From positions 140,802,001 through 140,866,000 of the forward strand of contig OX597817.1 of assembly GCA_951406725.2 (NCBI GenBank): a stretch of 64,000 bases of DNA, in the 5' to 3' direction. The stretch comes from Octopus vulgaris (taxonomy: Eukaryota). Below, piece after piece: positions 4,821 to 63,228 of the stretch (the stretch's first letter is position 1; each line of letters starts with the position of its first letter). The position numbers and the translations under genes are program-made. The notes beneath the pieces are model-generated. The model was not told the DNA's origin, ran no database searches, and was given only the letters and a program-made list of their open reading frames with translations.

Positions 4821-5441
4821 CACTCACACACACACACACATTCTGGTGACTTTGTAGTAACTTGAGCGACTACAAATAGCAGCTAAATCTCTCTTAAAAT
4901 ACATCCTTTCATCAAAAGAAATACACAGATTTACGTTATTTCAGGAAAAAGAAAAAAAGTATTCGATGCGTCGTTTACATCAGAGGCAACTCTCGGTTAG
5001 ACAAGACATCAAGACATAGACAAACATACTTTATATTAAAAGATTATCTAGTAAATAATACTAATAAAGTTGACGGCATATCTTCGAAATGTCATTCCCT
5101 GGTAAAACTCCATATAGAGTGTTCAGGCAGAGTTGCCTCCCTTATCTAAAGACTAAAAATTGTGCGACCCGACCTCCTTTCGATGTAATTTTTGTAGTAA
5201 AAAAGATTTGCTGTGCAAAAAACATACTTTATTTGATAACCGAAAGATTACTGAATATTTCTTAGTGGTAAGACCATAGCGGATCTATTTCTAGCATAAG
5301 GGTGTCCACATAGTGGTTTCTTTCTAATATGTATATAATACAATTTTACTGAACCTTCGGTTTTTTTATATGCTAGACCACTGGTGTGAAATCGATGTTA
5401 ATTAAATTAATATCTAATTTTCCCACCCTCATTTTAAATTT

Positions 5442-5499
<58 letters not shown>

Positions 5500-17585: not shown

Positions 17586-17816
17586 GGCGACGAGCTGGCA
17601 GAAACGTTAGCGCGCCGAGCGAAATGCTTAGTGGTATTTCGTCTGTCGTTACGTTCTGAGTTCAAATTCCGCCGAGGTCGACCTTGCCTTTCATCCTCTC
17701 GGGGTCGATAAATAAAGTACCAGTTACGCACTGGGGTCGATGTAATCGACTTAATGCCTATGTCTGTCCTTGCTTGTCCCCTCTATGTTTAGCCCCTTGT
17801 GGGTAGTAAAGAAATA
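17586..17816 (+). mobile_element. tRNA-derived SINE family B (central domain resembles MetaSINE-type), full length with TSD
   Basis: ggcgacgagctggcagaaacgttagc...gagttcaaattcc...gcctttcatcctctcggggtcgataaataaagtaccag...aaagaaata. Flanked by tatatttgatgaggagaa / tatatttaatgatgagaa. Confidence 0.85.
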
Positions 17817-18279
17817 TATATTTAATGATGAGAATATAGTGACTGTAGAACACTTTTACTGCAACTGAAATCTAATTAGCCGCTACTGTGGATGTATTTC
17901 CATTTAGATTCCTACAGAAACTACTCAAAACGTATGTTAATGTAACCAACTAAAGAGAATGACCGTTTAAATAATAACCAGAATAACAAAAGAAACTTCT
18001 TTACTTCTGCTAGTTTAGCATAACGTGGAATGGTTCGATAAAGAGCTAGCATAAGATTTGATGGTTTGGTTTCTTCTAACAAATCTAAAAGGCAAAAATC
18101 GATCGCTTCTATTCGAAGCACTCAACGAAGTCTGAACATCAAAGTGCTTGATGCTTTAAACAATGGTAAGTGTTCCCAGAAGTCCATCCATGCTCTTAAC
18201 ATTGAAAGATATGAAAAGATGCTGCAATCTCTATCTTCTCAACAACACTAGCATCTGTGTTCATTTGACCTTTATCAGG

Positions 18280-21807: not shown

Positions 21808-22542
<735 letters not shown>

Positions 22543-23279
22543 GTTTAAATATTTGTTGTGCAAGATTTTTTATGTGAAGTCGTGTGTTGAAACAGATATT
22601 GTTATATTTCGGAATGGTCATATTGCCAGTTTAGCCAATAAAAACACACGCACTATATATTTGGTGTTATTTTGCTTCAGTGATATTTATTTTTTACATT
22701 AATCTTAATCTTATTTCGGCCAAAGTTCTTTCGTCACACTCCTGTGACCGCATCAGTGGTCCTTTGTTTTCTTCTCACTAATTGTGTCTCTCCTTACTAA
22801 CCGTCAGCCATTTTGTATTTCTATTGTATGTCTTCATTTGCGCATGCTTATATCTCTATGTGCGTCTATGTTTATTTAGTGTGTGTGTGGGGGGGATGCC
22901 TGTAATATTTGTATCTTCTGGTTATATACATTCTTGTAATTTGTATTTTGTTTTTGTTGTTGTTGCTTTTGTTCTAATTTTGTTCATGTGTTTACATCCA
23001 CCCATTATCATCATTACATATGCTTGTATGTATGTATAACAACAATATTAGTAATAATAATAATAAATCTAATCGAAAAAAAAAAAATATATATATATAT
23101 ACATATACACATATATATATACATACACATACATATACATATATATATATATATACATATATACACACATATATACACATATACATATACATATATATAC
23201 ACATATACATATATATAGATATTCATTTCTATTTCTTTAATTACCTGTGTATTTATTATGTTTGCAGGATCCACTATTG

Positions 23280-24546
23280 TCATATGTTGTGGTGTGCGCT
23301 ATTGCTCCATTCTAGTTTTCTATTCAGGCTAGGTTTATTTTCTATTATATGTGTAGCTTCTGTAATTTGTCTAATTGTTGCATCTGTTCTGTGTGTGGAC
23401 AATATCTTAATCTCTATGTTATTGATTGATCCCCCGTGTTCTTGTTCGGCGTGTTGGTACAGAATCGATGAGCTTTTACCTTCCTTGAGTTGTCTCCAAT
23501 GTTCATTCATCCGCTCACCAATGCTTCTTGCAGTTTCCCCTACGTATGTTACTGTCTTGTTACTGCATTGTCCCTCTATACATCTTATACTATAGACCAC
23601 ATTTCTGGCTTTACAGTTCGTTTGTGGGCTAAATCTACATACAGTGCAATAGTTATCCGTACAGAGAGTTCTACTAAAAGGATAGCTTCTACCAATTATA
23701 GATCTGATAGGGTTGCCTGGCTTTTCAACAACCTTAATTCTTAGTTTAAGTTTATCTAGGGTCCTTCTAAAGCGGTACGCTAGTTCACCTCCAGGGGTGG
23801 TGTCAACGAACATGACACTCTGGTATTTATGGCTATCATACCAAGAGTTGGCCTTCCCTATTTTCTTTTTTGTCCTTTCTATAGTGTTCCATGACTTGTT
23901 CCTATAGAGTGGGCAAATCCCATTCCTATCATTACATAATATATTATCAAATTTTTTTCATGGCTCCTTTGTATACTCTGATCCTTTCTTTATGGCTGTA
24001 ACCTGAGAACTGCATGCGGTGAATGAAATACTGTATGTGTCTCTTTAATTCTGTAGGCTCGCACATGCGTGACACATTTCTCATTATTCTGACGAGGTCT
24101 GCCATCAAAATATTGAATTTGGCATTGCCCGCAATGGCTGAGTTCCGGTGGATCAGGTATTTTGAGGCCATAGGTTTTGCATAGTATGAATGAAGGATTT
24201 GGGTTTGGGTTTTATTTTTCACAATTTCTAGCCAGAGTTCAGTGTCTAGTACTGGTAGTCTATGGTTGGGGTGTTTAGTGGGGTAGTCTATTGTGACCTT
24301 AATACTCTGGTGGATGGAGTTAGCTATTTGCTGGATGCTCTCCATAGTATTAGTTTCTATTACTATATCAACAGTACTCTCTTGTGGGGGTGCCTTTACT
24401 ACTATATTGATATCATCAACATAGCGAGAGTACATGTTTACGAGTATGGATTTCTGCAGTAGGCATTCTTTAAGCCTTCTGTCCCACCATACCATGAAGA
24501 GGTTGGCCACATCACCAGCGATACTAACACCGATGGCTGCCCCCTC
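23280..24546 (-). pseudogene. PLE reverse transcriptase (C-terminal half) + GIY-YIG endonuclease, with one frameshift
   Basis: GAAIGVSIAGDVANLFM, YSRYVDDI, LPVLD, YYAKP, then C..C..C...NVVYSIRC...[16 protein letters not shown]...LN. Removing one A from the run at ~23952-23958 fuses the two ORFs. Confidence 0.9.
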
Positions 24547-24631
24547 GTTTTTTTTTTCGATTAGATTTATTATTATACAAAATGGCTGACGGTTAGTAAG
24601 GAGAGACACAAGTAAGTGAGAAGAAAACAAA

Positions 24632-24676
24632 GGACCACTGATGCGGTCACAGGAGTGTGACGAAAGAACTTTGGCC
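24632..24676 (+). ncRNA. Hammerhead-like motif in the PLE pLTR with a variant core (second copy at 22718-22762, minus strand)
   Basis: cca CUGAUGCG GUCACA-ggag-UGUGAC GAAAG-aa-CUU ugg; non-canonical position 9. Confidence 0.55.
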
Positions 24677-24790
24677 GAAATAAGATTAAGATTAATGTAA
24701 AAAATAAATATCACTGAAGCAAAATAACACCAAATATATAGTGCGTGTGTTTTTATTGGCTAAACTGGCAATATGACCATTCCGAAATAT

Positions 24791-24856
<66 letters not shown>

Positions 24857-25347
24857 ATTTGTATATCTAAAGAAGGATAAAATTTTTTCGAAAAAAAATG
24901 TTATCAATGGCCAGCATATTAAAAAATACCTTTAAAGGTTAAATTATAAACAACTTATAAATAAGGGCAAACGAAAAAATTTCTAATGCCAAATATGCCG
25001 AAAATTGAACATATTGTCCATTTACCATATAATTTTTCTCCAGTACGCACGCTACTCAAAAAAAGGTCGACAGAAATCTCTAAAAAATTCCATTATTACC
25101 ATATCGGACAGATTTCAGGGTTAGTTCAAAAAGAACCCTCCCTTCGTCAGTGATACATGTGGCAAAGAAGTAAGTGAGATACTTACTCATACCCATGGAA
25201 GAAGCAAACACTAAGTCATGAGCACAACTAAGTACCCCAAATAAATCCAAAGTAGAAATACTCCAGCCCATTCAAGACACGTGCGATTTGAACTGAGGCA
25301 CTCACAGAGTGGGAGAGTCCAGAAGTGAACACTATTAAATTTGTATA
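24857..25347 (-). mobile_element. ~480-bp ORF-less hammerhead-bearing monomer (pLTR/retrozyme-like)
   Basis: Homologous to 50776-51362 in circularly permuted order; terminal redundancy atttgtata at 24857 and 25339. Confidence 0.8.
25097..25155 (-). ncRNA. Type I hammerhead ribozyme
   Basis: uauca CUGACGA AGGG...CCCU GAAAUC-uguc-cGAUA uggua. Confidence 0.75.
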
Positions 25348-25363
25348 TATGTATGTATGTATA

Positions 25364-25831
25364 TAGTTGAAAAATATCGTTATAGGTATAAAAATACCAT
25401 AAACAATTATAGAAAAATGGAAGCGAAAAAGATGTTGAATCAAAATTAGATTTAATACAAAATAGGATTCAATACATACGCGCGTTTCAAAGGACAATAC
25501 AAATATGTAAGAAAAAACAATAACCATAGTAATTATAATTAAATTTATGCATTGTCATTTTCATCAATGTAAAGAACTTTTGTAAGGACTTCAAAAAAGG
25601 TTTTGGTGTTCTTACAAAAATTCCTTACATTGATGAAAATGACAATGCATAAATTTAATTATAATTACTATGGTTATTGTTTTTTCTTACATATTTGTAT
25701 TGTCCTTTGAAACGCGCGTATGTATTGAATCCTATTTTGTATTAAATCTAATTTTGATTCAACATCTTTTTCTCTTCCATTTTCTGTAATTGTTTATGGT
25801 ATTTTATACCTATAACTATAGTTTTCAACTA
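25364..25831. repeat. Long inverted repeat (~225-bp arms); each arm carries a hammerhead fold
   Basis: 25364-~25590 is the near-perfect reverse complement of ~25608-25831. Confidence 0.92.
25626..25724 (+). ncRNA. Type I hammerhead-like fold with a long stem II (mirror copy at 25473-25571, minus strand)
   Basis: uaca UUGAUGA AAAuGACAAUGCA...UGUAUUGUCcUUU GAAAC-GCGC-GUA ugua. Confidence 0.7.
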
Positions 25832-32507: not shown

Positions 32508-32514
32508 TTAAATT

Positions 32515-33160
32515 AAATGATGAGGGTAGATATTGATATCAATCAATTAACATCAATTTAAATCAGTGGTCTAGCATATTAAAAAAAATCCGAAGATTTA
32601 GAAATTATATTACAATTAATAAGAGGCATGACCACTAAAATGGATTCCTAATATGCTAACGATAGACGTTGAATCGCCTAACCAAGAAGGGCCTCAGCGC
32701 GCCAAGATGAAGACATTTGAAAGATACCCCCAAATATATTTTGCAGAAATGCACACGAGTTTTCTTTCGGGTGAACGTTTCTGTGAATAGTTTTTGTGAA
32801 ATATGTTTTGAAATGCAACAGACTACGCTGAGGAGTTACAGATATTTTCATTTTTGCATTTTGCATTATGCAAGTGTTAATAACGAAATCATGATACGTA
32901 GGTAATCGTTTTATTTTGTATATTTTCATTTGTCTTGCTTATTTTTACATTCTGGCGTTTTTGCTGAGATTTTTCTTGAGAACATACTCTTCGTTGTTAA
33001 GCGATATTTGTCGTCTATCTTTAGCATATTAGGAATCCACTTTAGTGATCATTCCTCTTATTAATTGTAATATAATTTCTAAATCTTCGAATTTTTTAAT
33101 ATGCTAGACCAGTGGTTTAAATCGATGTTAATTGATTGATAATTTCTACCTTCATTATTT
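32515..33160. repeat. Inverted repeat with ~150-bp arms (32515-32668 / 33012-33160); related fragments at ~5290-5440 and ~13130-13255
   Basis: Arms are reverse complements with a few mismatches. Confidence 0.85.
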
Positions 33161-33161
33161 A

Positions 33162-33229
<68 letters not shown>

Positions 33230-36209: not shown

Positions 36210-36295
36210 ATTTTCCTGAAGAGAAGGCTGCAAAATGGACTCCTTATTCAATCCGAATTAGGGACTTTGCAGCCTTTGAAACATATGTAGAAAAT
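36210..36295 (+). ncRNA. Type I hammerhead ribozyme, canonical core
   Basis: auuuuc CUGAAGA GAAGGCUGCAAA...UUUGCAGCCUUU GAAAC-AUAU-GUA gaaaau, in a ~245-bp TA-flanked element (36101-36347). Confidence 0.85.
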
Positions 36296-41029: not shown

Positions 41030-41985
41030 GGGCAGAAACGTTAGCGCGCCGGGCGAAATGCTTAGCGGTATTTCGTCTGCGTTACGTTGTGAGTTCAAAT
41101 ACCGCCGAGGTCGACTTTGCCTTTCATCCTTTCGGGGTCGATAAATTAAGTACCAGTTACGCACTGGGGTCGATGTAATTGACTTAATACCTATGTCTGT
41201 CCTTGTTTGTCCCCTCTGTGTTTAGCCCCTTGTGGGTAATAAAGAAATAGGTATTTCGTCTGTCGTTACGTTCTGAGTTCAAATTCCGCCGGGGTCGACT
41301 TTGCCTTTCATCCTCTCGGGGTCGATAAATTAAGTACCAGTTACGCACTGGGGTCGATGTAATATACTTAATACCTATGTCTGTCCTTGTTTGTCCCCTC
41401 TATGTTTAGCCCCTTGTGGGTAATAAAGAAATAAGTATTTCGTCTGTCGTTACGCTGTGAGTTCAAATTCCGCTGAGGTCGACTTTACCTTTCATCCTTT
41501 CGGGGTCGATAAATTAAGTACCAGTTACGCACTGGGATCGATAGAATCGACTTAATACCTATGTCTGTCCTTGTTTGTCCCATCTATATTTAGCCCCTTG
41601 TGGCTAATAAAGAAATAGGTATTTCGTCTGCCGCTACGTTCTGAGTTCAAATTCCGCCAAGGTCGACTTTACCTTTCATCCTTTCGGGGTCGATAAATTA
41701 AGTACCAGTTACGCACTGGGGTCGATGTAATCGACTTAATACCTATGTCTGTCTTTGTTTGTCCCTTCTATATTTAACCCCTTGTGGGTAATAAAGAAAT
41801 AGGTATTTCGTCTGTCGTTACTTTCTGAGTTCAGATTCCGCCGAGGTTGACTTTGCCTTTCATCCTCTCGGGGTCGATAAATAAAGTACTAGTTTCGCAC
41901 TGGGTCGATGTAATTGACTTAATCCCTCTGCCTGTCCTTGTTTGGCCCCTCTATGTTTACCCCCTTGTGAGTAGTAAAGAAATAT
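41030..41985 (+). mobile_element. SINE family B expanded into five head-to-tail ~184-bp units
   Basis: Units start at gtatttcgtctg near 41068, 41251, 41436, 41619 and 41803. Confidence 0.92.
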
Positions 41986-42257
41986 ATATTGTTGAACACG
42001 CGCGTGTGTACTGTATGAACTCATAGAGTTGTATGTAGGCGTATGTACTTGTAAGTTTACAAAGGAGTGGAGCTGATGTGGAGGAAGGCGAATTAAAAGT
42101 ATTTAGATTTTAATCATTACCACCATTCTTCTTCTCCTCAAGACTTTCACTTTTACTGATATACTTTCTCTTCAAGCATACATTTTTCTTCCAATCAACC
42201 ACAAATACCTCCCCTCCGCCTTTCCTCCACACTATCCTATTGAAATACCATTCTCTC

Positions 42258-48324: not shown

Positions 48325-50750
48325 TCTTTCATTTGTTGGCCACCAAGGCCGACATACAGGGGACAATACAGTAGAAGTGGACAGTGGGGTTCTACACAAA
48401 ACAAGTTCACAATTAAAACGATAACAATAAAATCAAACAAGAACAATATAACAATGAAAGTTCCCCGATAATGGGTAACCACCTGAGATTGGCTCAGGTA
48501 CCCCCAACAACCCTGAACCACTCGACGCTTCGAGGGCACCCGTGAAGGGCACCCTTCTCCTTCTCACATTCACTAGCCTACAGACGCATTATTAGAGTTG
48601 GTCCACTCACATTTTTTGCTATATTCACCCACCTTTTAGCAAATGTACGGGTGGGTAGCACTTCTCTCGCCACCCTCCTTCTCAGTTCTAAGTGAAATTT
48701 GAAAAATGCTGATGGGGGATTGGCCGAAGAGAAAAGTGTCTGTCTTCAGCCGTTTCAACCTGGTCTACCATACAACCTCATTCGCTACTGCTATCAGGCA
48801 GAGGAAAATTGCATGCCCTTCCGGACCAATGGAATGTGGTGGATCGATCTTCACTATCGACTTGGCCGATAGCCAGATCCGTCCTATACGTGATAACAGC
48901 TGTTAAACATAACTCCACAAGTCAGTAATGCACAGACACTGGACGAGTTCGTGCAGAACAGTTTCATCGCTCTGCACGCATTTATGGAAGTTATCTTTCG
49001 TCCCCTGCTCAAAAGTCCTCAGGGACAGACTGGTCAGTTCGACTTCGCCGACGCCTAGCACCTCCCCGAGTGCATCATAACATTTTCCCTTCACTAACCC
49101 TCTATAGAACTCGAGATGCCCGACTGGTAGAAGACAATGAGTGCCTGGCAACATTCCAGATGCCAGTCATCCTGTCTAGGTCTCTTCTTAACCCAGGACT
49201 GCAGTTCAGTCAGGGAGACGCGCTAGGGAAAGGCCTGTTTGACAAACGGCGACCACACCTGTTCACCGTTTAGGCAGAGTATCTGGAGATGTCACAGCCT
49301 CAGCACATGCCCAGACCTCCGCGTGGAGGATATACTGCCTCACCAATGGAACCTGTCCCTTCCACAAGAATTTGAAGAGGAGTGCTCCAACGCTACTTCT
49401 TTGCTAACCCCTATCGATATTACTCGAATCTCTCTTTTGAGAGCCGCCCACCACCTGTTGTTGACGACCCCACTGTCAACGTCTGCTTAACTAAACTCTT
49501 GACCCGATCCCTGTAAGCCTTACGTGCCGGAAACGACATGTTCAGCTTCCAGCACCTGGGTCGACCGTACAGATGGCAAACTTATGATTTGAATAGACGA
49601 CAGTTTTAAAAAGTGGACATCCTACATTACTACTATCTATTTTCCTAGTGAAAATCCTATCTATATACGATCTAGATGCCCCTAAGCGGTTGGTCTAGGT
49701 TCACACTGGTGCATTAGGGAAATCTCGTCGGTACCTGTCAGACGGTTGGAACTGGCTGATCAGGTTCTTGAGGCTTTTGCACACACACCTTCTATCAGCT
49801 ACTCCCACACAATCCCAACATTGGGTCTAAGATTCTGTTCCAGTCCCACACTAACAGTAAAGGGCGAGACGTATCTAGAAAGGCTTCCAGACGACCAAAG
49901 AAATCCGGCCGTTTGGCTCTGGTAGGGGTGTAGACGACCACCAGTCTAAAGATACCACCTTCACTATTGCTCACATCCAGGATCACCAACTTCCCGTCCG
50001 GGTCCCGGAAGATCGACTCTACCTCGAGATCCAGTTCTTTCCTAAACAGCACTGCCACTCAACCTCTCATTCCCGGCCGACTAACAGATGAAAAGGTCTG
50101 ATAACCGTCGAACACGGGGGGCAGTGCGCGTGTATTGGAAATCCTGGTCTCCCTGACAGCAATTATATCCAATTCTAAAGATTTGTGATCGTTGAGCAGG
50201 CGCCCTTGCAAATCTTCTGGTACGAGAAATGTGCTCGATTCGAAAATCACTCCCCCCACCCCACCCCTGTTTCAAATTCAATGTTTTGTGGTACGAGTGC
50301 CATCAGTTCTTCGTTATCCCTCCTGATAAGTACGAAGTTGAGTGTTTTGTGTTGGTATTGTTTGATTTGCTTTCTTGACTGTAGTGGTGATGGCCATGTT
50401 GTTGTTTCGGTTGTGTCTGTGTTTACTGTGAGTGTGGTCTCTAGTCTGATCTACATGCTGTGAGTCAATGGGCAGTCAAAAGCAAAATGCAACTAAACGT
50501 TGGAGTGCCCACATCAACAATAAGGTCGATATAGCTGAATCCTAAGAACTTTCCGGTCCAGAGAACAAGGTATCATCATTCCACTTTTCTCCTCCTTTGT
50601 ACGACCACAACCCGAATACTGCTGCCCCCTGTGGTCTCCCCACACAAAACAAAACAGGTCGAAAACTGAATCACCGCAGAGGCCATTCACTAAACGAATT
50701 AAGGGCATGACTGATCTTGATTACGGGACCGCCTTAAAGCATTGAAAATC
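48323..50750 (-). mobile_element. Tx1/L1-like LINE, internally deleted (ORF1 remnant, endonuclease, post-RT region, 3' UTR)
   Basis: LDIIAVRETR, VAVLFRK, GKLVILDV, FRLVVVYTP, WDWN; C-terminal C..SDETVLH.LVQC; ends against an (ATT)n tract. Confidence 0.8.
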
Positions 50751-50775
50751 TACTCTCTCCATCGCCGCCGCCAGC

Positions 50776-51362
50776 GGCTTTCTTCGATGAACTATATGGT
50801 TATGTGATGAACTATATGGTTATGGTCGATGTGTCTAGTTTCGGCATATTTGGCATTAGAATTTTTTTTCTTTTGCCCTTGTTTATAAGTTGTTTATAAA
50901 TTTAACCTTTAAAGGTATTTTTTAATATGCTGGCCATTGATAAAATTTTTTCCGAAAAATTTTATCCTATATTAGATATAAATTTAATAGTGTTCAGTTC
51001 CGGACTCTCACTCTGTGAGAGTTTTCAGTTCGAATCGCACGTGTCTCGAATGGGCTGGAGAATTTCTATTATGGATATATTTGGGGTACTTAATTATGCT
51101 CATGACTTAGTGTTTGCTTCTTCCATGGGTGTAAGTATTTCATTTATTTTTTTTGCCGCATTTATCACTGATGAAGAGAAGGTTCTTATGAATTAACTCT
51201 GAAATCGGGTCCGATATGATAATAACGGAATTTTTTAGAGATATCTGTCGGCTTTCTTCGAGACGCGTGCTTATAGTGATGAACTATATGGTTATGGACG
51301 ATGCGTCTAGTTTCGGCATATTTGGCATTAGAAATGTTTTTCTTTTGCCTTTGTTTATCAGT
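50776..51362 (+). mobile_element. ~472-bp hammerhead-bearing monomer plus a partial second unit
   Basis: gtgatgaactatatggttatgg...tagtttcggcatatttggcattaga occurs at 50804 and again at 51276; no coding signal. Confidence 0.85.
51162..51222 (+). ncRNA. Type I hammerhead ribozyme, canonical core
   Basis: uuauca CUGAUGA AGAG...CUCU GAAAUCGG-gu-CCGAUA ugauaa. Confidence 0.85.
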
Positions 51363-52359
51363 TATATATATACATACATACATATATGTACATACCTACA
51401 TATATATGTATATATACATGCATATATGGGTACAGGACATAAAAAAAACGTTGAACACAATGAGAAACGAAAACATAAAAAAGAGCATTGAAACGAACGT
51501 TTTTTCGAACAGCGAAAAAACCAAACAGAGAAATGAGACATACAATATGAAGATTATTTACCTTCTTCAGTTGCCCCTGTTTCATCTACTCCGCGTTACG
51601 AAGGCAAGAACAAGACGCGACTTCATTGAAACAGTCCTTCCCGCAAAGCAAATTAAATAAAATTTGGGATTTTTTGAGAGGGTGAAAGTGGTAACAAGAG
51701 CAGGACAGTGAGAACAAAACAATAAAAACAAACGGTGAGGGCTGTTAAGCCAAGACAATAGAAGAGTTATTATGAACACTAGGAAGACGAGCTTATGAAG
51801 GAGACAGTATAAACACGTTTTTTCTTTACAAAGGTAGTGGGCAGAAAGATTCTTTTTCGTCACGTATCAGCGACAAGAGAGTCGAGGAGGAGGAGTGAGA
51901 TAGAGGGAACAGTGAAGAGGAGAGGAGAAGAATATGGAAGGTGGGAGAGAAAACCAGAAAGGATGAAGAACAAGAGATGGAGAGAGATAGACAGAGAAGA
52001 GATAGTAAAGATAGAAGAGTGCGCATCGTAATTATTAAGGTAAAACTTACTTGGAAAAGGATGCGTGGTGTTCGATCATATAATAATATAAATAATATAT
52101 AAATATATGCATATATACCTACACATATGTACATACCTACATATGTATATATACATGCATATATGGGTACAGGACATCAAAAGGAAACGTAGAACACAAT
52201 CCAGCGAACATTTGCATTTAAATACCAACCAAGGAGATGTAAGCCACAATGATAAACACCAACTACAACCAATCTGTAGTAGTAGAATTACTTATGATAC
52301 AGCTAGCATAGTAACAACGGCGGTAAATGAAGTTAGGGCTGCTTTATATACAAATAAAT

Positions 52360-52799
52360 ACGATAAATACTCATGCAGAGAAAAATCCAAATGTCCTTTG
52401 ATGAATCTCTGAATGAGTACAAATCTTGTATATAAATGTACCGTGCACACAAGTAGAGGGCTCTATGTTTACATTGGGCAGGCAGCTGATTCATTTAAGA
52501 ATCGTTATCGTAACCATGCTGCCAGCTTTAAGACAATCAATAAAAGACATTCAATATTTTTAGCAGATTTTGTATGGCGACTGAAGGAGGATAAAATTAA
52601 GTACAGCATTAATTGGCTCATAGTAAGGTATGCGAAACCATACAATATAATTTCCAGGACATGCGGTCTCTGCTCCGAGGAATCCCTGTCTATTCTGTGG
52701 ACTAACGAGAAGATAATAAATAGAATTTCTGAACGATTCTCGAGATGCCTACACGAATATAAATGTATTTTCGCCCAATGCAGTGAGAATGAATTTTGA
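52360..52799 (+). pseudogene. C-terminal GIY-YIG endonuclease of a second PLE family
   Basis: SCREKSKCPLMNL*MSTNLVYKCTV...YIGQAADSFKNRYRNH..SF...VWRLK...I.W.IV....PY....C.LC..E...IN..SE...C.H. Confidence 0.85.
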
Positions 52800-53281
52800 G
52801 TAACCGTTAACTTAATTTAATTTACTTTAAGGAATGGATGACTTGAGTTTACTTTTAACCTCCCCATTCTTATAAACACCAAGTAGATAACTATCTCGCT
52901 TTTTGATCATGAGTGCATCAAACCTCACGTGTGAGTAAGCTCACATTTTTGCGGATGCTTGTATGAGCGAATGAACTCGCGCCATACAGTTTGCTCGAGT
53001 GTGTTTATACATCCATATTTATCTACGGTTACTTTTAATACCTTTCTCGCTGGATTGCGTGTTCATTTCTCTTTTTGTCATCTGTGATTTTATTTTTGAT
53101 CTTTATAAATTAAGATATTTCCTCCGTCTGGCTGCTTTTCTCTCTACAGAAAGGAAAGTTACATTGCGGAATGTAGTCTATTTGTTCGACTAAAGGCGGT
53201 GCTCCAGCATGGCCGCAATCACACATTACTGAAACAAATAAGACAATAAAAATTCCGAGCAACGCCGGATATCTCTGCTAG

Positions 53282-53359
<78 letters not shown>

Positions 53360-53587
53360 TAATATAGGATGAAGCTTTTTTACAGAAAAAAATTTCATCA
53401 GAAAATATGGCAGCATATTAAAATACCTTTAAGGTTAAAATTATAAACAACTTATAAACAAGAGCTAAAGAAAATTATTTCTATGCGAATATGCTGATAA
53501 CAGACTTTTAAATCGTCAATTTCCACATATTATTTACTCGCTACAGAAAACACGTAGAGCTGAAATCGAGGTAAGCTAGCCAATAGA

Positions 53588-56461: not shown

Positions 56462-58300
56462 CCTATCTCATCTCTTCTCCACGTTCTGGCGCTCGACCCT
56501 TTGCTGCAGAAACTAGAACTCTTGAAAGGCATCCCGCTCGAACTAGGATGCTGGAGAACAACTGTATCAGCATATGCGGATGACATCACGCTCATGGCGT
56601 CAGACACTGCTGGGTTTCAGGTTGTCGATTCTATTTTAAATGAATACGAGGAGATGGCAGAGGATAGGATAAATCTGAACAAGTTGGTAGGCCTGTGGCT
56701 CGGCAAAAAAGAGAAGCAAAACTATGCCAACGATAGACACACGGTCCATAGTAATTGCTCGATTTCTGGTTCGACCCTGACCTCCAGCTAAACAAGAACT
56801 GGCACAAGGGTAGCTAGTTTCACTCAGAAGTGGGCTGAGAGGAAATTGTCCCAGAAAGGTCGATCAGAGGTGGCGAATGCGAACATCGCATCTTTAATAA
56901 CTTATTGCCTGACCTTTGTCCTTAGCCTCAGTTCACGTTTGGCCCAACTAGAGCATTTACTTTACCGCTTCCTGTGTTCAACTGGTCAGGCGGTCCATCT
57001 ATTATCAGTGCCCTCTGAGTGGTGGATTTGGCAATCCATGGTTGCTAATGCGCAGACACGCCATGCGGCTACGCCACTTAAAGATTTTTCTAGACGGTGA
57101 ACCGGTGTAGTCTTCGTTTGTAGGATACGCTTTTCCGAGGCTCATCTCTTTGACAGAACGGCAATCCTGGATCAAGAAAAGACAAATATGAGGTACCTAA
57201 CATCTAGAATGTTGTCTGGCGCTCACTTCTCTACAAGTCAGGAAATACGGTGGGTATTAACCATATATAGAAATGTGGTGGTGGGTAAGAGCGATCGCGT
57301 TTTCGGGATAACTCTAGGCGTTGACAAGAATAAACTAGCTGACAGTTCGAGATAACCTTTACCGGCACAGAAGCGATGTCAGGCGGAACTGTCCAAGATA
57401 TGCGCTAAACGATGAAACTGCTCTGCCTGAAGCCATGCAGTATATGAGTATTTATTTCTTTATTGCCCACAGGGGGCTAAACACAAAGGGGACAAACAAG
57501 GACAGACAAAGGGCTTAAGTCGGTTACATCGACCACAGTGCGTAACTAGTACTTAATTTATCGACCCTGAAAGGATGAAAGGCAAAGTCGACCTCGGCGG
57601 AATTTGAACTGAGAACGTAACGGCAGCCGAAATACCGCTAAGCATTTCGCCCGCCGTGCTAACGATTCTGCCAGCTCGCCGCCCTACATGTAGTATATGA
57701 GTATTGTTAACTTGTGGAGTTATATCGAACAGCTGTTATAACGTGTGGAACGAATCCAACTCAGGGCCGACTCTATGGTGAGGATCACCCCACCAGCCAC
57801 CTTTAACAAGGCAAGGCAAACGGTGTTCCTCTGTCCAGTGGCTATGGTGAAAGAGATGGGATGGACGAGGCTGAAAGGATTGAGGAAAAACACCATCCTC
57901 TTTGGTCAAGCGCTCATCGACTTTTTAAAGTTCCAATTGAAAAGTAAAGTGGGGGTGGAGAGGGAAGTGCTATCAATGAATTTGTGTAAAGATGGGTGAC
58001 TATGGCAAAAATGGTTCAAGTGAATTGCTCTACTCTAAGTAGGTGCCTGAAGATTGGAGAGACCTGTTGGGTGAGGGCTCGTACCTTTGGTCGTCAGGAT
58101 AATTCTGGATCTATGGGGTTCCTTGATTGGCGCTTGTGGGAGTTTCACCTGTATCAGGAGGACCACATCATTCATGTTATCACATACTTCCATCACATTT
58201 CGCTGCCTTTTCCATTTCTTTCACGGCATCCTTTATGAAAACGCCCACACAAATTGTTGCCTTCCCTCATCTATGCCCGTGTGGCTAATAAAAGATTATT
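56462..58300 (+). mobile_element. Tx1/L1-like LINE, 5'-truncated, with RT remnant
   Basis: SSLLHVLALDPLLQKL...VSAYADDITL...INLNKLVGLWLG; W..RKLS.KGR; 3' end ctaataaaagattattgttg. Confidence 0.85.
57453..57686 (-). mobile_element. SINE family B nested in the LINE, with a 19-bp TSD
   Basis: TSD catgcagtatatgagtatt (57434) / catgtagtatatgagtatt (57687). Confidence 0.9.
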
Positions 58301-62518: not shown

Positions 62519-63047
62519 CTGCTTGCTCTGAGTGCGTGTGTGTGTGTGTCGGGAATATAATATATAAACCAGTCTTGGGAAATGTACCGCACTGTGCCTC
62601 ATTCCTGTAATTACCCCTGCTAACTACCCTTCTATTCCACTCACTAACAATATCTTCAAATGTGACAGACACAATCTTTAACAATAGTATTATCCATCAC
62701 CTTCAAATCCCCTCCTCTCTCTCTCTCTCGATTTCTCTCTTTCTCTATCTATCTATCTCTCTCTCTCTCTATTTCTCTCTCTCTCTCTTTCTCCCTCTTG
62801 CTCGTAAGCACACCTTGAAAACATTTACCCTATTTTTTTACTTCTGAGAATATCAACCTGCATGAGTACCCTGCCTACAGATAGTTTCTTTGCTCTCATC
62901 GACTTTTAACATTTCAAACGAAATGTGAACATCATCAATCTCACCAATTAGAGAGAGCCTGCCAATAAGCACGGGTTCAACTTCCTCCTGACCAAACCAA
63001 AAGGAAAGGGGTCGGAGAAATGTGAGTTGATATATTTCCCAATTATA

Positions 63048-63228
63048 TTTTATTTCTTTACTACCCACAAGGGGCTAAACACAGAGGGGATAAACAAGGA
63101 CAGACAAACAGATTAAGTCGATTACATCGACCCCAGCGCGCAACTGGTACTTAATTTATCGACCCCGAAAGGATGAAAGGCAAAGTCGACCTCGGCGGAA
63201 TTTGAACTCAGAACGTAACGGCAGACGA
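63048..63228 (-). mobile_element. SINE family B, 5'-truncated
   Basis: Reverse complement of the family B body and tail. Confidence 0.85.

Follow-up and report, generated by a model that had tools for sequence, protein, structure and literature searches.

A circularly permuted, hammerhead-bearing repeat of about 475 bp in Octopus vulgaris, probably a non-LTR retrozyme

Copies of the repeat unit

The window, that is, the whole 64-kb stretch of Octopus vulgaris DNA that was analysed, contains three copies of a non-coding repeat unit and remnants of two Penelope-like elements (PLEs), as follows.

25348-24857, minus strand: copy 1, a complete unit (period 482) that begins and ends with the same 10-bp word, flanked on either side by (TA)/(TACA) tracts
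25089-25162, minus strand: type I hammerhead motif of copy 1 (core 25150, GAAA 25116, predicted cleavage after 25102)
50775-51362, plus strand: copy 2, about 1.25 units (period 472) in a different circular phase from copy 1
51156-51228, plus strand: type I hammerhead motif of copy 2 (core 51168-51174, GAAA 51201-51204, predicted cleavage after 51216)
53359 to about 53535-53566, minus strand: copy 3, 5'-truncated, without the hammerhead, running into (TA)n
23283-24567, minus strand: broken Neptune-like PLE (RT and GIY-YIG), across a (TA)n tract from copy 1
22478-22818 (direct) and 24575-24794 (inverted): terminal repeat of the Neptune-like PLE
25364-25831: near-perfect (94%) palindrome of 468 bp, abutting the 5' tract of copy 1
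52341-52799, plus strand: PLE endonuclease fragment resembling the Hydra clade (Cys motifs compared by eye), followed by an unrelated 3' region of its own

The original prediction described copy 1 as a circularly permuted copy of a ~475-bp unit, and a self-comparison of the window bears this out. Copies 1 and 2 align in one block of 409 nt at 83% (24945-25349 with 51370-50973) and another of 175 nt at 87% (24862-25034 with 50980-50810), and the order of the two blocks is swapped between the copies; after rotation to one phase, 412 of 485 columns (85%) are identical. As was also claimed, the end and the start of copy 1 are fused inside copy 2, at 50980/50981. The redundancy at the ends of copy 1, given as 9 bp, is in fact a duplication of 10 bp (25348 and 24866). 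In copy 2, where about 85-110 bp had been proposed, we found a terminal redundancy of 87 bp (arms 50804-50890 on the 5' side and 51276-51362, 81/87 identical), and the extra 29 bp (50775-50803) correspond to a rearranged 5' junction, in which 13 nt from phase 51249 are followed by a re-copied 16-nt piece and the joins are short microhomologies. Such a stuttered junction would be typical of reverse-transcriptase template switching. The two arms are more similar to each other (93%) than to copy 1 (82-86%; 78/91 and 75/91), as would be expected if a single template was read beyond one full turn.

The third decayed piece that had been placed at about 53360-53510 is real: nhmmer detected copy 3 (E 1e-10 to 2.5e-10), which is about 72% identical to copies 1 and 2, and no fourth copy in the 64-kb window. 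The 3' end of copy 3 has the same phase as that of copy 1 and therefore does not define a third 3' phase. An extension of copy 3 to the cleavage site was not significant, since 121 of 500 shuffles scored as well. Its divergent 5' part (53500-53535) resembles the loose-end consensus letters of two public sequencing runs, X2 and X17, and copy 3 may represent a separate subfamily instead of a merely decayed copy.

The unit has a GC content of 33-34% and no conserved ORF, the longest Met-ORF being 89 aa in copy 2 and the longest stop-free stretch of copy 1 not exceeding 63 codons. The self-comparison gave no LTR pair at the unit, no PBS or PPT was seen by eye, the window contains no tRNA gene and no promoter was identified for the unit. 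Like retrozymes, it is thus non-coding, has a GC content under 50% and is devoid of LTR, PBS and PPT (the last two as judged by eye).

Hammerhead motif and predicted folding

In both full copies the hammerhead core is intact, with an A-U pair closing a two-part helix II, a palindromic helix III and a helix I extended with an internal loop. A type I descriptor retrieved both copies among 5 sites in the window, compared with 0.03 per shuffled window, and none of 100 shuffles gave at least 2 sites; a palindrome-weighted descriptor gave 6 sites compared with 0.05 per shuffle (maximum 1 in 60 shuffles). The motif is therefore beyond chance. Rfam returned no hammerhead family, either at the gathering score or at E values up to 10, the weak matches being to microsatellites or due to chance. 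When the 23 pairs were compared between copies 1 and 2, 16 were the same, 2 were changed on both sides, 2 were changed on one side and still paired, and 3 were broken in copy 1. Among the variants listed from public contigs (40 of 134), five fall in 51156-51228. One of them is at position 7, the variable position of the core, and the other four, in helices, are compatible with pairing; none of the five touches the invariant core. On the descriptors and covariation, and with Rfam negative, each unit can be said to carry one type I hammerhead as a motif.

The thermodynamic predictions are mixed. Helix III of copy 2 would form a 12-bp self-duplex of -15.0 kcal/mol; that of copy 1, weakened by the loss of 1 nt and a mismatch, reaches only -2.4 kcal/mol. 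When the core was forced, the outer helices formed unprompted, and the active fold cost 4.1 and 5.7 kcal/mol. Against a ribozyme, the local fold of copy 2 with the lowest energy (-19.1) differs from the active one (-15.5), and the local fold of the motif alone is no better than shuffles (weak z-scores of -1.4 and -0.8). Directly 5' of the hammerhead, a long, G-U-rich hairpin (51082-51142, plus strand) is predicted in both copies, with -17.3 and -28.3 kcal/mol on the sense strand and -3.8 and -6.4 kcal/mol on the antisense strand. The whole unit folded as a circle has z-scores of -7.3 and -3.0 in sense versus -3.7 and -0.4 in antisense (40 shuffles each). The unit RNA is predicted to be 63-66% paired, and the models describe a self-paired RNA that would leave the ribozyme able to fold.

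A consensus splice-donor word is present at 51131, just 5' of the hammerhead, and a pyrimidine tract with AG at 51362 (also at 50890). These words could mark a PLE-type retained intron holding the ribozyme; no splice-type joint was found among the matches listed (15 of 37 joints), and the donor word also lies within the conserved hairpin.

Other hammerhead motifs and repeats were noted in the window. Another type I motif, not related to that of the unit and also with a palindromic helix III (32828-32901, plus strand), is contained in an element at about 32512-33163 that has an inverted 5' piece (32512-32689 versus 33163-32989) and ends in (TA)n; a fragment of this element also occurs at 5336-5487. 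A third hammerhead family has two copies (36216-36295, plus strand; 39643-39590, minus strand), interleaved with (TA)n and (CA)n tracts and with inverted internal pieces. At 41031-41990 there is a five-fold tandem of a dispersed SINE-like repeat of ~185 bp, also present at 17586-17826, 57449-57683 and 63042-63228.

Ends of the copies, public contigs and neighbouring PLEs

The 3' ends of all three window copies lie within 3 nt of a TA tract, compared with 2.8% of non-tract positions within 10 nt as background, a statistic that would be inflated if TA tracts grew from AT-rich ends after insertion. At the 5' side only copy 1 ends at such a tract. The window is AT-rich, and its about 100 TA-type tracts make up 7% of it. 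The 3' ends fall into two phases, 50890-98 and 50968-80, which correspond to TA-like words within the unit; their distance from the predicted cleavage site, in the 3' direction, is 146-154 and 236 nt. The different phase of each insertion, as originally proposed, thus holds for copies 1 and 2, which are permuted; the phases are not free, since the 3' ends recur at these two words. Fixed termini, which had been named as evidence against the proposal, are shared in part, at the 3' ends only.

No end of the three window copies falls on the predicted cleavage site, which makes a simple linear monomer released by cleavage an unlikely template for copies 1 and 2; their template would have to span this site, as would be the case for a circle, a multimer or an RNA left uncleaved. 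The 10-bp word of copy 1 may be a target duplication or a terminal redundancy; two of its letters are absent from the copy 2 junction and it continues the flanking TACA tract; it may thus stem from duplication of the microsatellite target and not from the unit itself.

Part of the unit is contained in 20 of the 24 public runs listed, from 10 studies and with 4 organism labels, none of them on record as RNA. We aligned the contigs of four runs to the reference 50650-51362 at 80% likeness, which gave 4,662 and 7,708 contigs in the two genome-size runs, X1 and X2; X11 and X17, whose RNA nature is only guessed, have 594 and 168 contigs with pieces of the unit. The summed contig depth tracks the match of the reference to short contigs and was not taken as a copy number or a truncation profile. 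In X17, 22% of the pieces run on into unlike sequence. Among the loose ends listed (24 of 804), one at 50898 followed by (TA)n, at the end phase of copy 2, recurs in 40 contigs of X1, 36 of X2 and 5 of X17. Those at 50951-50963, which begin at homopolymer tracts and have a low agreement (0.52-0.67), weakly back the end at ~50980. Loose ends at 51137 and 51160 were rejected as termini because they reflect a 4-nt indel, as was a single X17 contig that enters at 51229, near the predicted cleavage site, and is no evidence of an end.

Among the 32 records listed, with 13,256 further ones beyond the list, the junction 50980/81 is bridged, with at least 31 letters on each side, in three (two of X1 and one of X2). 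These three records differ from copy 2 at 21-29 positions, so other loci carry the junction internally. Among the 15 of 37 joints listed, four go back 403-462 nt from 51290-51333, the other junction, with the caveat that such joints can come in part from contigs split between the two arms of the reference; nine switch strand, each in one contig, and are like the inverted 5' pieces of PLE insertions (PMC8557442). One X1 contig crosses the left junction of copy 2 without gaps, and the copy 2 locus is therefore not an assembly artefact. The left flank of copy 2 (50650-50769) is itself high-copy in the public runs, its junction to the unit being unique. None of the three window copies is a full dimer with two tandem hammerheads and no contig among the matches listed spans the whole unit; head-to-tail junctions occur in copy 2 and in the public contigs. 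A conserved 20-nt motif of the unit had no match in viral and prokaryote genome contigs, and a lone metagenome match proved to be a chance 21-nt match inside an unrelated gene of bacterial type.

The permuted copies might be pieces excised or recombined from the array of a DNA-level repeat, either a dispersed satellite or a rolling-circle DNA element, with the hammerhead as a relic. Pieces of tandem arrays are naturally permuted, and local tandem amplification of such units has been discussed (bioRxiv 10.64898/2026.07.22.740005). The polarised 3' ends at (TA)n, the stuttered 5' junction and the strand-switch joints argue instead for an RNA intermediate, as do the sense-strand-biased structure and the covariation, and we regard this origin as highly improbable.

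The same ends and junctions suit a linear, non-autonomous mini-PLE with its start at phase 50981 and its end at ~50980, for which no circle is needed. Copy 1 would then represent the complete element, with its 10 bp as a target duplication, and copy 3 a 5' truncation of it; copy 2 would be an ordinary PLE partial tandem, made of an upstream pseudo-LTR and a body primed at a secondary TA word. That copies 1 and 3 have one 3' end and that the duplicated 10-mer has two letters that the copy 2 junction lacks and continues the TACA tract both agree with this; moreover, PLE insertions typically make partial tandems and inverted 5' pieces (PMC8557442), and the 146-236 nt from the ribozyme to the 3' end compare with about 100-210 nt before the end for the hammerheads of Hydra PLEs. 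On the other hand, the presence of the junction 50980/81 inside the unit at other, diverged loci implies that it was templated or remade very precisely, a ribozyme mid-way in a linear 475-nt transcript would cut that transcript in two, and the whole unit has a sense-strand fold like that of retrozyme circles. We consider a linear mini-PLE with partial tandems unlikely; it stays a live rival, and the main one, since fixed termini are shared in part, at the 3' ends.

Copy 1 sits in a nest of PLE-type insertions. The protein fragment encoded by the PLE at 23283-23954 matches a protein of Octopus vulgaris with 93% identity, and the Cys linker motif suggests that the element at 23283-24567 is of the Neptune clade. 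A hammerhead-like motif with a non-canonical core was seen by eye in its terminal repeat, near 22760 (minus strand). Each arm of the palindrome 25364-25831 has a different hammerhead-like motif with one core change, and the palindrome is probably an inverted PLE-type terminal repeat. The Hydra-like endonuclease fragment had no database match. It has an in-frame stop, and its 3' region (the whole spanning 52341-53170) folds well around 52940-53020 (z -3.0), resembles a decayed hammerhead and has splice-like signals on both sides. According to the literature, O. vulgaris has 31 recently active PLE families (PMC13282606), PLE clades that target (TA)n occur in Octopus (PMC8557442 supplement), the Neptune and Hydra clades both prefer (TA)n targets (PMC8557442), and PLEs tend to insert beside each other (PMC6765202).

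In such surroundings, the unit could be no more than a terminal repeat or 3' UTR belonging to an autonomous PLE family, with its copies as truncated insertions. Indeed, the distance from copy 1 to the PLE RT frame downstream on its strand is about 290 bp, and a PLE endonuclease fragment follows copy 2 after about 1 kb; type I hammerheads with a palindromic helix III are known from PLE terminal repeats (PMC6765202), and attachment to an ORF may occur elsewhere, since the loose ends listed are 24 of 804. By self-comparison, however, neither PLE remnant has sequence in common with the unit, and both have terminal regions of their own that are unrelated to it; the unit is therefore not the pseudo-LTR of either. 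Within the window it is neither contiguous with nor repeated around an RT + GIY-YIG ORF, and we found no PLE sharing sequence with it in the window or in the available part of the PMC8557442 supplement. In addition, about 1 in 100 aligned contigs of X1 and X2 enters unlike sequence, most contigs being short, and the coincidence of the 5' start of copy 1 with the internal junction of copy 2 would be rare by independent truncation. We therefore judge this explanation quite improbable.

Proposed origin and comparison with known systems

We propose, with a probability of roughly 0.6, that the unit is a non-LTR retrozyme copied from a ribozyme-cut, likely circularised RNA by a (TA)n-targeting PLE enzyme. 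Tandem or partial-tandem copies would be transcribed, and the hammerhead, perhaps dimeric through its palindromic helix III, would release the unit, which would likely be circularised. A (TA)n-nicking PLE RT/endonuclease would then let the nicked target anneal to a TA-like word of the RNA (phases 50890-98 and 50968-80), so that priming would be internal, 146-236 nt past the cleavage site. The enzyme would continue across the ribozyme site, whether ligated or uncleaved, making 0.4 turn in copy 3, 1.0 in copy 1 and 1.25 in copy 2, and copying would finish by microhomology or template switching.

Against the retrozyme proposal, the 3' ends are recurrent and not random, and copy 1 is exactly one turn long, as would equally be expected of a linear element whose ends are fixed. 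What stands of the initial retrozyme-like reading is a self-contained non-coding repeat whose junctions fit a template read beyond one turn; freely permuted ends are not supported. The original prediction is thus partly supported: class and permutation were correct, the phases are limited by TA microhomology and, alone, are no proof of a circle. A more specific reading, which we put forward tentatively, is that the copies preserve, as fossils, events of reverse transcription that were target-primed on a circle made by the ribozyme, with primer sites at its TA-like words and variable numbers of turns. If it is true, the start and end phases of thousands of copies would be direct genomic evidence for the circular-template step, the part proposed by the retrozyme model for which we found no demonstration in the available text of the retrozyme papers. 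With so many dispersed copies whose ends can be scored, the family could distinguish between circular-template and linear-tandem models of mobilisation by PLEs, and it may give rise to abundant circular RNA in cephalopods that has escaped annotation.

The class is known, as animal retrozymes and their dependence on PLEs are published, and the octopus family appears to be new. A title and abstract search of the literature (Repbase and Dfam being outside its scope) gave no report of an octopus retrozyme or of this unit family, and the available main text of the O. vulgaris repeat annotation (PMC13282606), whose repeat library was outside our scope, does not contain the words 'ribozyme', 'hammerhead' or 'retrozyme'. 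Non-LTR retrozymes, with circles in coral, mussel and axolotl, were described by Cervera & de la Pena in 2020, who proposed primed reverse transcription of the circles by PLEs (PMC7229834). A vertebrate survey links retrozymes to PLE terminal repeats and reports monomers and units of 51-972 bp; its working definition of an active retrozyme is two tandem hammerheads, and one of nine predicted Xenopus retrozyme dimers was cleaved in vitro (bioRxiv 10.64898/2026.07.22.740005).

Like the animal non-LTR retrozymes, the octopus unit is non-coding, of low GC and a few hundred bases long, with one type I hammerhead per unit, a self-paired predicted RNA, a high copy number, monomers and co-occurrence with PLEs, here as two coding remnants in the window. 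It differs from them in its length, 472-482 bp compared with circles of 170-400 nt, although it is included in the 51-972 bp of the survey, and in its dispersed 0.4-1.25-mers in (TA)n with recurrent TA-like ends.

The architecture and (TA)n targeting of EN+ PLEs were described by Craig et al. in 2021 (PMC8557442). The unit is like the pseudo-LTRs of the Neptune and Hydra clades in its type I hammerhead with a palindromic helix III shortly before the 3' end, and its insertions have the PLE-type signature of (TA)n targets, partial tandems and inverted 5' pieces. Unlike them, it has no ORF and no sequence in common with the PLEs of the window, its helix I is extended with an internal loop and its helix II is two-part. 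The hammerhead of Hydra-1_Obim from Octopus bimaculoides has different helices (PMC8557442), and when nine exact motifs of the unit were compared with the available PMC8557442 supplement, eight were absent and one, a 10-mer, occurred in unrelated sequence.

Newt satellite 2 and the hammerhead SINE-like repeats of Schistosoma (PMC6765202, PMC7229834) are likewise short, of type I and probably dimer-acting; they are mostly in tandem arrays, unlike the octopus unit, which is without an identified promoter. Plant LTR retrozymes (PMC4918200) share with it a non-autonomous, hammerhead-bearing nature and, if our proposal is right, a circular RNA intermediate. They have a type III hammerhead in two true LTRs, PBS/PPT, a 4-bp TSD and gypsy machinery, whereas the octopus unit has none of these and carries a type I motif, one per copy.
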